Of a DNA stretch of 64,000 nt, positions 41,017-47,731 are shown one piece after another. The translations under genes were made by a program, and so were the position numbers. Position 1 is the first letter of the stretch; every line of letters begins with the position of its first letter. The stretch is from Enterobacteria phage XTG1, in the sequence record KT184316.1, one strand, 5' to 3'. A model generated the notes under the pieces. That model worked only from the letters and a program-made list of their open reading frames with translations. It had not been told where the DNA came from and made no database searches.

Positions 41017-41817
41017 ATGAATATCGATGTAGAAAAGATGCTTGAAGAGAAAGGTGTTGATGAAGCATTCTTAATCAATGCCGTAGAAAGCATGGCTATG
41101 ATTCTTCGTGGTAATAACTACACAGAACAGTTTATGCCTGCAAGCTATAACTTGCCTGAAGACAAGTCTGATAACGGTGCTTTTGCAGAACAGGTCAACA
41201 TGATGTTAACAGACACTACACTTGCTCTGGCATCTATTGCGGTTGGTGTTGATGCACTTGCTGAGTTCATTTTTTATGAAATGCAAAAGAATGACTATAT
41301 CAGGATGTCAGACGAAGATAAGGAACTGTTGCTGACTAAGGACACTGATTTCATTATTGATACGCTTATCTCATCAACGAGTGCTGTTATGGCTGTTCTT
41401 GAGAAGCGTATGGAAGAGAAACTTTCACGATATGAAAAACTTGATTGGGGCGTAGAAGAATTAAACCCACGAATCAAAGAGATTATCCAGCAAACTAAAG
41501 AGTCTTTGGAAGAAGCTGTTGAAAATGACTCTGTAGCTGACATTGAACCACTTCAGGTGAAAGTTGCACTGATGATTCCAGCTATCTCTACGATGATGAA
41601 TATCGTTGCACTAATCCAACTGTCACAGATGATGGGTGTGAGTATTGAGTTCATTGAGGAAATGACTGGTGGCGTTAGTATGCAAGCAATCAATGATGTT
41701 TTGGTGAACATTGGTGCTTCAATCATTGAAGAGAAACTACGCATTAACTTCGGTGATGATTTTGTGAAGCAAATCTCAGCTATGGCTGAAAAAGAGTCTG
41801 CTGAGCAACTGCACTAA
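41017..41817 (+). CDS. Hypothetical acidic protein (266 aa)
   Basis: Intact ORF, followed by terminator. Confidence 0.5.
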   Translation: MNIDVEKMLEEKGVDEAFLINAVESMAMILRGNNYTEQFMPASYNLPEDKSDNGAFAEQVNMMLTDTTLALASIAVGVDALAEFIFYEMQKNDYIRMSDEDKELLLTKDTDFIIDTLISSTSAVMAVLEKRMEEKLSRYEKLDWGVEELNPRIKEIIQQTKESLEEAVENDSVADIEPLQVKVALMIPAISTMMNIVALIQLSQMMGVSIEFIEEMTGGVSMQAINDVLVNIGASIIEEKLRINFGDDFVKQISAMAEKESAEQLH

Positions 41818-42630: not shown

Positions 42631-42831
42631 ATGAAGATGAGAGTAAAAGACAATTTTAAAGTTATTGACCACCGTTTAGTGGAACTCTCATTTCTTTCCA
42701 ATGAGGTAATGATTGAACGTCTTAAGAGAGTTGAATCACGAAGGAAAGAGATTGCAGATGAAATTCATGAACTGGACAAGATTGAAAATGGATTGAAGGC
42801 AGAACTACAACGAAGAGGTGCTAATGTCTAA
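42631..42831 (+). CDS. Hypothetical protein (66 aa)
   Basis: Small coiled-coil-like ORF. Confidence 0.4.
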   Translation: MKMRVKDNFKVIDHRLVELSFLSNEVMIERLKRVESRRKEIADEIHELDKIENGLKAELQRRGANV

Positions 42832-44809
42832 AGGTCGTAAATTGAAAGAGGCTGGTCAGTTTATTGGTCATTGTGCATGTCCACGTTGTGGTTCATCAGA
42901 CGCTGGTTCAATCTATCATCATGACGATGATTCTTATTCGATGACTTGCTTTAGTTGTAACAAAGGTTTCCCAGAGTGGGATTTTGATAAAGGACAAATC
43001 GTGAGCACTTATTCTACTGGTTCAGACAATAAAAACCGTACTTTCCGTGGAATGGATTTAGACGATGTGAAAGAAAACCTTGAAGCAATGGACTTAAAGG
43101 ACAGGAAGATTCCTGCAAAAGTTCTTGAGCGTTTAGGTATCAAGGTTGACATTGACAGTGATGGTGAAATTGACGCGCATTTCTACCCAACTTACAAACG
43201 CAATGAAGATGGCAAGCTAGAGCATGTTGGCTACCGTGTTCGTCACCGTTACCCAGAAGACCATCCAAAAGAGCACCTACGAGGTAAGTTAAAAGACTTT
43301 TCTGGTGGTGTTGGAGACATTAAAGGTGAACTGGCAATGTTCGGTTCATGGATTGCTCCAGAAGGTGGTAACCGTCTATTCATCTGGGAAGGTGAGATGG
43401 AATGTGCGACAGCAATCTATATGACTTCTCTTGCGATTAAGGACAAGTCTCGTCGTAAAAATTACTGTCACGTATCTGTTCCATCAGGTGCAAACATCAA
43501 GTCTATCAAGGATAACTATCAGTACATTACATCATTTGATGAGATTTACTTGTGCTTTGATAACGATGAAGCAGGTGCTAAAGCCACTAAAGAGGCTGCT
43601 GGTATCCTACCTATTGAGAAGGTTCGTTTATTCCAGTATCCAGAAGGCGTAAAAGACCTTAACGAGTGGTGGACAAAGTTCTATAAAGAGAAAGATACAG
43701 TTCTGGAAGGATTTAAGCAGCGTATCTACAATGCACCTCGTTACTGTCCTGCTGGTATCAAGAACTTTGCAGATGGTTTTGAGGCAATGAAGAATCGTGG
43801 TCAGATTCCATTGATTCCTTTCCCAGAATCTTTCGGAGATTTGAACAGGCTGACTTATGGTGGTTACGGTTTAGGTGAGATTACAACTATTGCAGCACCA
43901 TCTTCAGTAGGTAAGTCAGCTTACACTCGTGAGATGATTTACTCAGCTTGGAAAGAAACTGATTATAATATCGGTGTAATTCCTGTAGAAGATACCTATG
44001 AAGAGTTGATGGAGATGCTCTGTGCAATCCACCTGAGCAAGCAGATTTCTGAGATTCCTTATGATGAACGGGATTGGGATGAATTAAAAGGAGCACACGC
44101 AGAACTTTCAAAAGGTCGTCGTATCCATATCGTTGACCATCAAGGGGCAATTGACCAAGATAACCTGCTAGAGTTTGTTGACTATCTTGTTAACAGTTTA
44201 GACTGTAAGATTATCATTCTTGACCCTATCACGTTAGCCCTGTCACGTTCTGATACGGATGAAGAAGAAGTTTTGTCTGAGCTATTGCGTCGTTGCAAAC
44301 GCTACCAGTATGCGCAGGTGAACGTCTGTCACGTTCGTAAGAGTGCAGGCGGTCAGAAGGCTAACTCCGAAGGTGGAGATATCTCTGAAGAGGATATTAA
44401 AGGTTCTGGTGCGTATTTCCAGATTTCTATGAACAACATTCTGTTAATGCGTAACAAGGTTGACCCAGACCCTGTTAAGAAAAACTTGACAAAAATCAAG
44501 TTAACTAAATGCCGTCGTCACGGTAAGTCAACGGGTATTGCTGGTCATACTTGGTACAATCCAGATACAGGACGTCTCATTAAAGCATCTGGTTGTGGAG
44601 TTGACATTGATGGTGCAGCAGAAAATATTCGTCAACAGTTTGGTATTGGTGAAGCTGAAGACCATTATGATGACTCTTTGCCTCATTATGAGGATGAAGT
44701 GTTTGACCGTGAGACTGGTGAAGTCTATACTGAAGAACAACGTCAAAGCTCAACGATTCCACCTGTATTAAGTGAGGATGCAGATGACTGCCCGTTTGAA
44801 ACTGAGTGA
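42818..44809 (+). CDS. DNA primase/helicase (zinc-ribbon, TOPRIM and DnaB-like helicase fusion)
   Basis: CPRCGSS ... CFSCNKGF zinc ribbon; FIWEGEME and LCFDNDEAG TOPRIM acidic motifs; Walker A APSSVGKSAY. Confidence 0.85.
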   Translation: MLMSKGRKLKEAGQFIGHCACPRCGSSDAGSIYHHDDDSYSMTCFSCNKGFPEWDFDKGQIVSTYSTGSDNKNRTFRGMDLDDVKENLEAMDLKDRKIPAKVLERLGIKVDIDSDGEIDAHFYPTYKRNEDGKLEHVGYRVRHRYPEDHPKEHLRGKLKDFSGGVGDIKGELAMFGSWIAPEGGNRLFIWEGEMECATAIYMTSLAIKDKSRRKNYCHVSVPSGANIKSIKDNYQYITSFDEIYLCFDNDEAGAKATKEAAGILPIEKVRLFQYPEGVKDLNEWWTKFYKEKDTVLEGFKQRIYNAPRYCPAGIKNFADGFEAMKNRGQIPLIPFPESFGDLNRLTYGGYGLGEITTIAAPSSVGKSAYTREMIYSAWKETDYNIGVIPVEDTYEELMEMLCAIHLSKQISEIPYDERDWDELKGAHAELSKGRRIHIVDHQGAIDQDNLLEFVDYLVNSLDCKIIILDPITLALSRSDTDEEEVLSELLRRCKRYQYAQVNVCHVRKSAGGQKANSEGGDISEEDIKGSGAYFQISMNNILLMRNKVDPDPVKKNLTKIKLTKCRRHGKSTGIAGHTWYNPDTGRLIKASGCGVDIDGAAENIRQQFGIGEAEDHYDDSLPHYEDEVFDRETGEVYTEEQRQSSTIPPVLSEDADDCPFETE

Positions 44810-45065
44810 TAGTTATAAAAGAGAGGGGTTCACACCCTTCTTTGAAGAAAAAAGTTTAAATAAATTTCAGGAAGAGTGTTTGACAAAGGTTGATAGGTTC
44901 TATAGAATGCTCTACATGAAATGTGATGGGGGTGTTGAGGTAGAAGAAAAGTTCCATCACAGTATTATCACAGTCACTATTACTATACCTGAACATAATA
45001 TTGGTTGGCTGTTTATAATGAAAGAAAATGTGTTTGAATATCAAGTATATCGGAGAATATCATGA
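44772..45065 (+). CDS. Hypothetical protein (97 aa)
   Basis: ORF overlapping primase-helicase 3' end. Confidence 0.35.
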   Translation: MRMQMTARLKLSDSYKREGFTPFFEEKSLNKFQEECLTKVDRFYRMLYMKCDGGVEVEEKFHHSIITVTITIPEHNIGWLFIMKENVFEYQVYRRIS

Positions 45066-45283
45066 AACACTCTAAAGCATTTGAAAAAGTTTTTGGGGAC
45101 TCTTTAAAAGCCACTGCTGGAAAACCAGCAAAATACTATGAAGAAAAACGTGTAAGAACTGGAAAAACTGCACGTAAAGCAGCTTCTAAAGATAAGCACA
45201 ACTTCCAGTAATTAATGTTTGACAATAGAGTATCAACAAATTAGAATTGGTACTCTTCATAAATTGAGATAGAGGTTTAAATA

Positions 45284-46141
45284 ATGTCTAAAGTTGTTAA
45301 AATGAAAGCTCCGGTAGAGAAGTACAATGGTACTGAACGTCAAACTCTGCGTTACCTGCTGAAAGATGTCTGGTTTTATTACCTGAATACTTCACCACGT
45401 CCGGGAAAAGGTAAGTCTATTGATAAGAAATTCCCAGGAAAAGATTGTAACTACAGCGTATCAATTCTGGCAGAAGACGGTAACAAACTGTTTAAAGAGT
45501 TTACTAAGTCTAAGAAAAATCCAGAAGGATGGGATAAAGTTACTACTGAAGCAGTTGATGCAGACGACTTCGAAGAGAAGTTTGGTTGTAAACCACCTTT
45601 TGAAGCAGACACTTACTACATCTTGAAAGTAAGTCGTGCAGCAGCTTATAAAGACGGTGCTGTATGGACAGCTAAACAGTCATTCCCTGTGATGCTGATT
45701 GAAGAAGTAAATGGTAAGCGTGTAGCTGTTAAACAGCCGATGAAGAAAATCAAAGCTCAAGCATCTGATAAACATGAAGATGACAAGAACTATGATGTAA
45801 TTCATCCAGATATTGCAGTCGGTAACGGTTCTTTTGGTAGTGTGATTCTTTCTACTCACTTCTACACTTTTGAGAACAATGTTCTGACAAAACCTATTCA
45901 GGAACAGTTTATCATTGATACTCTTGTACCTTACACTGGTGGTAACGGTGCTAATGGTGAACCTGAACTGGATGAAGATGAACTGGCTATGCTTGGTCTT
46001 GATGGTGTTGAAGATAACGGTGAAATCACTGAAGAAGACGCAACAGACCATAAACCTTCGAATGCTTCTGATGATGGTGACGATGAAGACTTGCCAGACC
46101 CAGATGACGAAGAAGATGAAGACTTCGATACAGAAGACTAA
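45284..46141 (+). CDS. Putative ssDNA-binding protein with acidic C-terminal tail
   Basis: 285 aa; C-terminal 60 residues are D/E-rich ending DFDTED; location in replication operon. Confidence 0.45.
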   Translation: MSKVVKMKAPVEKYNGTERQTLRYLLKDVWFYYLNTSPRPGKGKSIDKKFPGKDCNYSVSILAEDGNKLFKEFTKSKKNPEGWDKVTTEAVDADDFEEKFGCKPPFEADTYYILKVSRAAAYKDGAVWTAKQSFPVMLIEEVNGKRVAVKQPMKKIKAQASDKHEDDKNYDVIHPDIAVGNGSFGSVILSTHFYTFENNVLTKPIQEQFIIDTLVPYTGGNGANGEPELDEDELAMLGLDGVEDNGEITEEDATDHKPSNASDDGDDEDLPDPDDEEDEDFDTED

Positions 46142-46160
46142 TCTCTAAAAGTTACTTTAA

Positions 46161-46187
46161 AGCCCTGTACTCAGTATGGGGCTTTTT
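46161..46187 (+). terminator. Hairpin terminator
   Basis: agccc-tgtactcagtat-ggggc followed by ttttt. Confidence 0.4.
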
Positions 46188-46203: not shown

Positions 46204-47244
46204 ATGGAGAAGTACACATTAACAAAACTTCCCGATTCAGTTACACATGTTTTTATTGACTCTGACAGTATTGCCTACAAAGGTGCTTGTGTAGTTGAGA
46301 AAGCAAAATATAAATATGTCAATAAACTCACAGCAGAAGAATCTGAGCCATTTGATAATGCGAAAGATGCTGCAAGATGGTTAGCAGACCAGAGAATCCT
46401 TGTGGAAGAACTTGGCCTGACATTTGATGAAGATGAATGGGAAAGACAGACTTGGAAAGAAGCTAAGAGTGAAAAAGAAGCTATCATGGCTACTCAACAG
46501 GTGCTTCAGGAATGGCTTAAGGTTGTTGGGAAAGAAAGAACTTGGGTAGGTTATTTAACAGAGAAAGGTGTACATAAACATAAAGACATTAAAGGTCTTG
46601 AGCACCAATATCAAGGTAACCGTAAAGATGCTGTCACACCAACACACTTAGTTGCTTGTCGTGAGTATCTTCTGTCAAGACCAGAGTTCAAACTCTTAAA
46701 GGGTGGCTTCGAAGCCGATTCAATCGTAATTGCTAAAGCTGAAAAGATGGGTAAGAAAGCTGCTCTTATGAGTATTGACAAAGACCTTCGACAAGCTGAA
46801 GGAACTTATTGTATTGATATGACTTATGAAAAGTCACCACTAATTTTTATCGCTGATAATAATGTTGGTGATATCTGGGATTGTCCTATCAAATCAAAAC
46901 CAAAAGCTGCAAAAACAGTTGGTGTAGGTTTTAAATTCTTGTGTTATCAGGCTGTTGCTGGAGATAATGCAGACAACTACTTCGGCCTAAAAGGTGCTGG
47001 TAAAGTAGCTGTGATGAATGCTTTAGATGGTAAAGAGACCTACAAAGAGTGTCTTGACGCTATCTATGAACTCTATGCTAAAAAAGACTCTTATACCTAT
47101 GTGTCATGGGATGGACAGACTGTTACAAAGACACCGTTAGAGTTAATGGAACAGCATTTCTGGATAGCATATCAAGAGAGAAATCCAAAAGACAATTTCT
47201 CTTTCAAGAAATATAATTGGGAGCCGTGTATGAATGAAGATTAA
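46204..47244 (+). CDS. 5'-3' exonuclease / flap endonuclease
   Basis: N-terminal VFIDSDSIAYKG; H3TH-like GDNADNYFGLKGAGKVAV. Confidence 0.6.
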   Translation: MEKYTLTKLPDSVTHVFIDSDSIAYKGACVVEKAKYKYVNKLTAEESEPFDNAKDAARWLADQRILVEELGLTFDEDEWERQTWKEAKSEKEAIMATQQVLQEWLKVVGKERTWVGYLTEKGVHKHKDIKGLEHQYQGNRKDAVTPTHLVACREYLLSRPEFKLLKGGFEADSIVIAKAEKMGKKAALMSIDKDLRQAEGTYCIDMTYEKSPLIFIADNNVGDIWDCPIKSKPKAAKTVGVGFKFLCYQAVAGDNADNYFGLKGAGKVAVMNALDGKETYKECLDAIYELYAKKDSYTYVSWDGQTVTKTPLELMEQHFWIAYQERNPKDNFSFKKYNWEPCMNED

Positions 47245-47731
47245 AGGATTTGGCAATTGCCCTACCTACGGTCATTGGGTATCTTTATGTGGGGAAGTTG
47301 ACCCCACTAAACATTTTGGCTTTGTCTATTTAGTACACTGTAAGAAGACTGGACAATATTATATCGGAAAGAAACAGCTTAATAGTGTGACTAAAAGAAA
47401 AGTTGCTGGCAAGACTCGGAAGAAGGTAGTCACTAAGGAGAGTGATTGGATGACTTACGAAACCTCTTCTGAGTATATTAAAAAAGATATTGAAAGCTTT
47501 GGAAAAGAATCTTTTGATTTTTACATTATTCAAACCTACTACACAAAAGGTGGTCTAGTCTATGGTGAAGCAAACCTCCAACATAAATTCGATGTAATGA
47601 CAAAAAGGATTGACTCTAATCTCAGACTCTTCTACAATGCCAATATTGCAGCAATTAAGTTTATTACTAAAGAAACTTATGAAGATGCTGAAAAAAGAAT
47701 CCATAAGGTAATGAAAGCAAATTGTGCTTGA
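47234..47731 (+). CDS. GIY-YIG domain nuclease (homing-endonuclease-like)
   Basis: GFVYLVHCKKTGQYYIGK resembles GIY-(x10)-YIG motif. Confidence 0.5.
   Translation: MKIKGFGNCPTYGHWVSLCGEVDPTKHFGFVYLVHCKKTGQYYIGKKQLNSVTKRKVAGKTRKKVVTKESDWMTYETSSEYIKKDIESFGKESFDFYIIQTYYTKGGLVYGEANLQHKFDVMTKRIDSNLRLFYNANIAAIKFITKETYEDAEKRIHKVMKANCA

Follow-up and report, generated by a model that had tools for sequence, protein, structure and literature searches.

The window analysed here is a stretch of 64,000 nucleotides (nt) from Enterobacteria phage XTG1 (KT184316.1), a Felix O1-like myovirus (Felixounavirus, Ounavirinae) that shares 99.5% identity with Escherichia phage SP22 and 95-99% DNA identity with about 200 further records. 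Between its fused primase-helicase gene and a 5'-3' exonuclease gene lies an open reading frame (ORF) of 285 amino acids (aa), the product of which is an exact match of Felix01p191 of phage Felix O1, the protein of gene 104 (AAQ14822.1; UniProt Q6KGA9, 'Uncharacterized protein'). Adding 23,136 to a window coordinate gives that of Felix O1, and the gene can be equated with gene 104 because the terminator 't104', predicted independently in the Felix O1 genome paper, coincides with the hairpin seen here (PMC3185647). We consider it highly probable that the product, gp104, is an SSB (a protein binding to single-stranded DNA, ssDNA) of the T7 type, a divergent relative of phage T7 gp2.5 that fills the missing SSB slot of Felix O1. 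An SSB-like function had been put forward in the original prediction made from this DNA, and the profile link to gp2.5, the alignment of Tyr194, the predicted fold and the gene context described below all support it.

The protein has received little annotation. Names in 40 phage records sampled across 301 tblastn hits read 'hypothetical protein' in all but one case, itself a mislabel, and among about 33 named members of UniRef clusters a single entry, from phage SapYZU01, is called 'Single-stranded DNA-binding protein'. A literature search combining Felixounavirus with gp2.5 or ssDNA-binding protein found no papers. The Felix O1 genome paper of 2010 lists a ligase, the polymerase (Gp96), the primase/helicase (Gp101) and the exonuclease (gene 105), and the terms 'single-strand' and 'SSB' are both absent from it (PMC3185647). 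The same pattern extends over some 300 sequenced genomes of Felixounavirus, Mooglevirus and the Erwinia/Pectobacterium Ounavirinae, where polymerase, primase-helicase, ligase and exonuclease are listed and an SSB is not.

The link to T7 gp2.5 was built up through sequence profiles. An alignment of nine family members, with identity down to 45% (a word-indexed search had given 14 clusters), was used for an hmmsearch of 1.84 billion representative sequences, which retrieved 66 proteins at E <=1e-3, 13 at <=1e-10 and four at <=1e-30. The distant matches, proteins of 200-240 aa, are alike in their core motif, F-E-x-x-F-K-x-x-P-P-F-E-A-x-x-Y-Y, and their acidic tails have an aromatic as the last residue. 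Six of ten such intermediates match phrog_3877 (E 1e-16 to 1e-21), the 'unknown function' group to which gp104 belongs (E 2e-170, with no other PHROG), and also phrog_112 (E 3e-5 to 8e-14), labelled 'Gp2.5-like ssDNA binding protein and ssDNA annealing protein'. One intermediate weakly matches PF10991, below threshold (E 0.006), and the contigs that carry the intermediates are T7-like in content, with endonuclease I, 5'-3' exonuclease, Gp5.9, a Toprim primase-helicase and Pol A. When the family and the intermediates were combined in a widened alignment of 43 sequences, its profile returned T7 gp2.5 (1je5) as the top match among PDB sequences (E 1.8e-7), and hhalign placed gp104 109-219 on T7 101-185 with 93.3% probability (E 2.6e-7). 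The protein itself falls below the family thresholds of both PF10991 (Enc34_ssDNA-bd) and PHROG 112; as phrog_112 is reached solely via the intermediates and the widened profile, gp104 is a homolog lying outside current sequence models.

Structure prediction leads to the same group of proteins. T7-type SSBs are described by an oligonucleotide/oligosaccharide-binding (OB) barrel, a helix that directly follows strand beta2, a stacking aromatic where beta4 begins, and a basic cleft together with an acidic unstructured tail (PMC5686142). The AlphaFold2 (AF2) model computed from the family alignment has a mean predicted local distance difference test (pLDDT) score of 69.6, about 80 in the core and below 40 in the tail; that from the widened alignment has a mean of 84.6, with 204 residues at 90 or above, and its five models (81-85) keep the secondary-structure order of the first. 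Foldseek matched the predicted fold to T7-type SSB structures only (E 1.9e-5 to 8.5e-4, probability 0.99-1.00). Structure-comparison scores for the first model were 8.8 with the Enc34 SSB (5odk), 7.8 with T7 gp2.5 (1je5) and 7.9 with a DUF2815 protein (4klk), the next being 4.5; for the second they were 8.8, 8.6 and 8.5, followed by 4.9. The OB fold that the original prediction had named as its check is thus what AF2 returns, in a barrel nearest to gp2.5, Enc34 ORF6, 4KLK and 4JG2 and not to other OB proteins.

G180-N-G-S183 and the predicted base-stacking residue fall into register with T7 gp2.5 (Table 1). The former is nearly invariant in the widened alignment (N181 in 42 of 43 sequences, G182 in all 43), and Tyr194 meets T7 Tyr158 in two alignments; it does not vary within the family, and 31 of the 43 sequences have an aromatic there. 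In the model it stands within strand E183-196, toward the strand end rather than its start. T7 Y158 is required for ssDNA binding (PMC5686142; PMC13402713), and a 2026 study confirms it as a nucleic-acid contact residue that is also required for activation of the defence system Retron-Eco8 (PMC13402713). Conserved basic residues, K115 (Lys in 33 of 43) and R118 (basic in 32 of 43), lie on the strand that matches the one bearing T7 K109, the counterpart of Enc34 Arg112 in the basic cleft; K109 itself aligns with S117. Overall the core with its N-terminal extension (aa 1-218) is slightly basic, with 34 Lys or Arg against 30 Asp or Glu. The extension stands ahead of the part matched by shorter gp2.5-like proteins in alignments, distant homologs starting at about profile position 20-30, and a Lys-rich loop is inserted at about aa 150-175, ten residues of which are missing in one homolog. 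The three-strand extension and the loop are clade-specific additions.

Table 1. Features of gene 104 and its replication-cluster neighbours in the window
Feature	Position	Strand	Remarks
Family A DNA polymerase, 909 aa	37636..40365	-	PF00476, phrog_17
Fused primase-helicase (Toprim_2 + DnaB_C)	42818..44809	+	phrog_239
Primase-helicase C-terminus P-F-E-T-E	44792..44806	+	same tip motif as gp104 family
Sigma-70-like promoter, putative	45219..45247	+	TTGACA-17 nt-TAGAAT; 11/12 consensus positions; 36 nt before start codon
Ribosome-binding site GAGG	45272..45275	+	8 nt ahead of ATG, read from sequence
Gene 104, coding sequence, 285 aa	45284..46141	+	ATG start, TAA stop; C-terminus ...DDEEDEDFDTED
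N-terminal extension, aa 1-22	45284..45349	+	DSSP strands E3-6, E11-14, E17-20; pLDDT >90
Predicted OB-fold core, aa 23-218	45350..45937	+	motif F96-x3-F-x3-P-P105-F-E-A-x2-Y-Y112
G180-N-G-S183	45821..45832	+	on T7 gp2.5 G144-G-G-S147, start of beta4-beta5 hairpin
Tyr194, predicted base-stacking residue	45863..45865	+	on T7 gp2.5 Tyr158; Enc34 Trp150 equivalent
Acidic C-terminal tail, predicted disordered, aa 219-285	45938..46138	+	31 D/E, 1 K/R; pLDDT ~30-55
Junction motif D232-E-L234-A-M-L237-G238	45977..45997	+	D232, L234, L237, G238 invariant in family alignment
Tail tip F281-D-T283-E-D, [F/W]-x-T-E motif	46124..46138	+	F281, T283 invariant in family alignment; proposed docking peptide
Intrinsic terminator	46159..46187	+	12-bp stem, 3-nt loop, U-tract; -15.2 kcal/mol, z -2.97
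5'-3' exonuclease (T7 gp6 / FEN-like)	46204..47244	+	phrog_107, E 2.4e-63

The gene context supports the assignment. With the polymerase, the primase-helicase and the exonuclease, the neighbourhood of gene 104 is the T7 replisome set gp5, gp4, gp2.5 and gp6, and the order primase-helicase, small ORFs, gene 104, exonuclease is preserved in all relatives examined, down to 30% identity. In the reverse-transcription PCR table for Felix O1, ORF 104 peaks at 25 min, in the same class as ORFs 96 and 101 (PMC3185647). No other candidate emerged at E 0.3 or better from a six-frame phmmer search of the window with E. coli SSB, T4 gp32 and T7 gp2.5 as queries, the first two being approximate sequences, and the widened profile matched the gene 104 ORF alone (E 1.6e-65, the next at 0.81).

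The original prediction had described a 285-aa ORF with an acidic tail ending in DFDTED, and this is borne out, the last 60 residues containing 31 Asp or Glu. Apart from gp104, no window ORF of 100 aa or longer has at least 10 acidic residues in its last 25, and so the tail does not simply reflect the composition of the genome as a whole. Tail sequence varies across the family alignment while acidity is kept. The junction motif, invariant at four positions, appears as a short predicted helix (aa 231-236, pLDDT about 70) in the model from the widened alignment, and the sole aromatic of the 67-residue tail is F281 in the tip. An aromatic is found within the last six positions in 42 of the 43 proteins of the widened alignment; in most intermediates it is terminal (...DIPF, ...DDPF, ...GEDW), as in T7, and the Felix O1-like clade adds x-T-E after it.

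This same tip is borne by the primase-helicase of the window, which ends in ...DADDCPFETE. When the 160 ORFs with 60 aa or more are compared, just two, gp104 and the primase-helicase, match [FWY]-x-T-[ED] in their last eight residues, and both proteins carry the motif in six of seven lineages (Table 2). Flanking residues co-vary between the partners, as in the pairs PFETE/PFETE, GFQTE/GFQTE and PFRTE/PFKTE: over four variable positions around the aromatic, and in a sample of six lineages only, 11 of 24 residues are identical in the true pairing, a value that no other of the 720 pairings exceeds and that not one of the 265 derangements attains. Gene conversion or DNA copying was considered as a source of the matching tips and rejected. 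The codons differ, with 10-16 of 21 nt identical, and the match is therefore maintained at the peptide level. Upstream of the tips, strings of the form ELG[F/Y], like the junction motif, occur in some helicase tails (L008, L003, L006); with tips removed, helicase and SSB tails showed no significant similarity in local alignments set against 500 composition-preserving shuffles (z -1.1 to 1.95).

Table 2. C-termini of the primase-helicase and the SSB-like protein in seven lineages
Lineage	Primase-helicase	SSB-like protein
Window	DCPFETE	DEDFDTED
L011	DCPFETE	DAPFETE
L012 (Pectobacterium phage Arno162)	GSGFQTE	EEGFQTE
L008 (Enterobacter phage phi63_307)	DIPFRTE	DVPFKTE
L010	RDDFVTA	DDDFQTE
L006	EVGFETN	DNDWETE
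L003	...EPCEQH, motif absent	ESWRTE

These observations can be assembled into a working model by analogy with T7. In that system the gp2.5 tail and ssDNA compete for the OB cleft (PMC10359462); the tail anchors on the front basic patch of T7 polymerase (K587/K589/R590/R591), a peptide of the gp4-type tail, DTDF, is seen on the polymerase in PDB 6P7E, and the C-terminal Phe of gp2.5 is there described as essential (PMC12339929). By extension, the OB-fold core of gp104 would hold ssDNA in its cleft, bases stacking on Tyr194 with K115 and R118 in contact, and the acidic tail would probably rival ssDNA for the cleft. Through its [F/W]-x-T-E tip the tail may dock on another replisome protein, for which the family A DNA polymerase is the most probable candidate. 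Because the primase-helicase bears the same tip, both proteins would use one site, sharing and contesting it as the gp2.5 and gp4 tails do in T7, and the T7 precedent suggests that the common tip most likely marks a docking site on the polymerase. Like gp2.5, gp104 may also promote strand annealing, in concert with the adjacent 5'-3' exonuclease.

Several points weigh against this picture, some against the identification and others against the proposed mechanism. Pfam has no family for gp104, a scan of NCBIfam gave no match, and a single-sequence phmmer search of the PDB returned only a spurious BshC (E 0.97). BLASTP against T7 gp2.5 was not significant (E 0.02), and hhalign of the family-only alignment with gp2.5 reached 7.7% probability, in an unchanged register; the sequence link between gp104 and gp2.5 therefore depends on the intermediates and is transitive, not direct. 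A long capping helix after beta2 separates T7-type SSBs from other SSBs (PMC5686142), and the helix that directly follows beta2 (E55-62) in gp104, H66-71, is much shorter than those of T7 and Enc34, at six residues by DSSP; a second helix, H93-100, comes one strand later. A second SSB gene beyond the window, in the remainder of a genome of about 87 kb, is argued against only by the annotations of relatives and by the genome paper. With regard to the tip, the co-variation comes from the six lineages just mentioned, the L003 primase-helicase is without the motif, and in the distant lineage L015 both tails are acidic and contain an aromatic, yet are unlike, so that the tight tip match is specific to the clade. 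Finally, where T7 polymerase has its front basic patch (KWKRR), the window Pol A reads ISKGG, and across the polymerases compared the position is ISKGG, ICKGG, IAKGG, WKRGG or AHGGG (in an alignment of 22% identity and uncertain register); as the patch is not conserved, homology offers no receptor site on Pol A.

In the same low-identity alignment a Lys-rich insertion, KATKKALEEVFGK, was observed just upstream of the patch position (T7 gp5 about 575-595) in the polymerases of the window, L008 and L011, and not in those of L003 and L006. It could provide an alternative basic docking element. More generally, we would tentatively suggest, as something possible rather than probable, an Ounavirinae docking code, different from the terminal-Phe code of T7 and E. 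coli SSB, in which an internal aromatic followed by x-T-E at the very C-terminus, present on both SSB and primase-helicase and co-evolving in the two, is read by a receptor that is non-homologous to the T7 patch, with D-E-L-x-x-L-G as a possible second contact that would render the tail bipartite.

The alternative that survives best retains a T7-type SSB and has both tails dock on a common partner other than the polymerase (the DNA-binding cleft of the SSB, the 5'-3' exonuclease, the ring of the helicase or some protein of the host), or gives the tip another role such as control of protein stability; we regard this as unlikely. It would accommodate the lack of a conserved T7 patch in Pol A. 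It also draws on the L008 tips, DDDDIPF-RTE and DDDDVPF-KTE, which are similar to that of E. coli SSB, DDDIPF, and on the ...DIPF or ...DDPF termini of many intermediates; the host partners of the E. coli tip, however, recognise the carboxylate of its terminal Phe, and the three residues past the aromatic would block such recognition. Self-docking has precedents in crystals of T7-type SSBs, in which C-termini occupy the beta-sheet groove of neighbouring molecules (PMC5686142), and in AF2 predictions that put the T7 tail into its own groove, whereas in T7 itself, the only studied system of the type, both tails are found on the polymerase (PMC12339929). The co-variation of helicase and SSB tips demands a common receptor, without naming which.

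That gp104 has a gp2.5-type OB fold and acts as a recombination or annealing protein, or as a regulator, with host SSB at the fork, appears improbable. Such a role would suit its position next to a 5'-3' exonuclease, a typical recombination pairing, and the clade-specific strands and Lys-rich loop of its core; T7 gp2.5 itself anneals, and phrog_112 is named for annealing as well as ssDNA binding. Against this, gene 104 is found in every relative, always between primase-helicase and exonuclease, its expression accompanies that of polymerase and helicase (PMC3185647), its tail ends in the tip also seen on the replicative helicase, and no other SSB candidate is apparent in the window or in the Felix O1 genome paper. 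Since one T7 protein holds both roles, this alternative and a replicative T7-type SSB are not truly exclusive. Very improbable indeed is the notion that the acidic tail is the functional part of a protein devoid of DNA binding, as a mimic of DNA or a factor of host takeover (Ocr/ArdA-like, or an acidic activator resembling a transcription factor): it could appeal to the 31 Asp or Glu among 67 tail residues and to the only Pfam match, a weak one to TFIIA (E 0.61), but that match is compositional, being confined to the low-complexity tail and far under its cut-off (10.4 against 36.2 bits), the tail is poorly conserved and the slightly basic core well conserved, the predicted core fold matches SSBs specifically, and known DNA mimics are, to our knowledge, folded acidic domains and not disordered tails.

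As a probable T7-type SSB, gp104 resembles gp2.5 (PDB 1JE5) in the profile-level link, in the register of GNGS and Tyr194 on GGGS and Tyr158, and in its predicted disordered acidic tail with one critical-looking aromatic near the end. The likeness extends to the matching tips of the primase-helicase (T7 gp2.5 ends in ...EDGDF and gp4 in ...NDTDF) and to the gene set of Pol A, gp4-like primase-helicase and gp6-like exonuclease. It differs in its low identity of 13-16%, beyond pairwise BLAST, in its length (285 against 232 aa, with a tail of 67 against about 40 residues), in the extra N-terminal strands and Lys-rich loop, and in an aromatic that is not terminal and is followed by x-T-E(-D); its phage, moreover, is a myovirus that employs the RNA polymerase of its host and has a Pol A without the front basic patch at the aligned position. 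With the Enc34 ORF6 SSB (PDB 5ODJ/5ODK/5ODL; PF10991, formerly DUF2815) it has in common an OB core, extra N-terminal strands, an acidic unstructured C-terminus and an aromatic at the start of beta4 (Trp150 in Enc34), but it has no PF10991 match, the identity is 13-14%, and the Enc34 protein is smaller, its length being about 190 aa and its tail 29 residues. E. coli-type SSB (PF00436), which in E. coli is a tetramer, and T4 gp32 have no sequence similarity to gp104. Their capping helix lies elsewhere in the topology, and the fold of gp32 is too distinct for alignment with T7-type SSBs (PMC5686142).

The finding is expected in kind and useful for annotation; the clade-specific tip shared with the helicase is a detail beyond the original prediction. 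Felix O1 is a classic among the phages used for Salmonella typing and for biocontrol, and the assignment of gene 104 would close a gap in its annotation, complete a T7-type replisome within a myovirus and supply PHROG 3877 with a function. It also implies that T7-type SSBs extend past the reach of present Pfam, NCBIfam and PHROG models, and the co-varying tip of helicase and SSB offers a handle on replisome organisation. Bacterial defence systems such as Retron-Eco8 sense T7-type SSBs via the Tyr that is conserved as gp104 Tyr194 (PMC13402713), and knowing the SSB gene therefore helps to foresee to which defences these therapeutic phages are sensitive.

Gene 104 had been assigned to a replication operon. 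It does sit in a replication cluster, but 'operon' calls for correction, as the gene has its own promoter and its own terminator (Table 1). The promoter is putative, being a match to consensus, and some relatives carry a promoter annotation at the same place; the terminator is annotated in relatives too. On the reverse strand of the gene, reading is broken by stops. Just upstream of the promoter lies a 49-aa Lys-rich ORF (45062..45211, plus strand), which relatives list as a hypothetical gene of 150 bp, and a terminator-like hairpin on the minus strand (45114-45131) falls inside it.

Some database copies of gene 104 are irregular. A 97% identical copy is present in GU169904 (Staphylococcus phage SA1, 103398-104183), which is probably a chimeric or contaminated assembly, and two 'Campylobacter' records likewise match the window at the DNA level. 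In Shigella phage SFPB (OQ031072, 32815-33572) the ortholog is represented by two coding sequences of 135 and 150 aa, through a frameshift or sequencing error or else as a pseudogene.

Further genes of the neighbourhood encode a deoxynucleoside monophosphate (dNMP) kinase, a SegE-type GIY-YIG endonuclease, a MazG-like pyrophosphatase and ribonucleotide reductases (RNRs). The endonuclease (47234..47731, plus strand, 165 aa) is assigned to PHROG 447, 'NAD synthetase', a label that appears wrong; Pfam identifies the SegE-type GIY-YIG domain (E 3e-28), and phrog_7363 is named 'homing endonuclease'. Similarly, a 266-aa protein encoded between Pol A and the dNMP kinase (41017..41817, plus strand) matches phrog_4251, 'minor tail protein' (E 4e-145); it has no Pfam match and is syntenic in all relatives (277-283 aa in L003, L008 and L011), and its 'tail' label looks doubtful. 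Pol A is intact in the window. In phage Tribble (L001, 12032-15536) it is represented by two coding sequences split by an 'endonuclease' gene, and the anaerobic RNR gene of that phage is also interrupted, by an HNH endonuclease; mobile endonuclease insertions therefore differ between close relatives.

The primase-helicase varies as well. In the near-identical contigs L006 (4106-6901) and L007 (403-2283) it measures 931 and 626 aa, respectively, with the same C-terminus, a gap in length that could reflect an insertion, an intein or a difference in start-codon calling. In L003 (6249-9517), a gene for a PIF1-like helicase of 448 aa directly follows the primase-helicase gene and overlaps its 3' end. 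The tail of the L003 primase-helicase contains DDEELGYG, similar to DDEELDELGYSG of gp104, and the SSB of that lineage retains WRTE.

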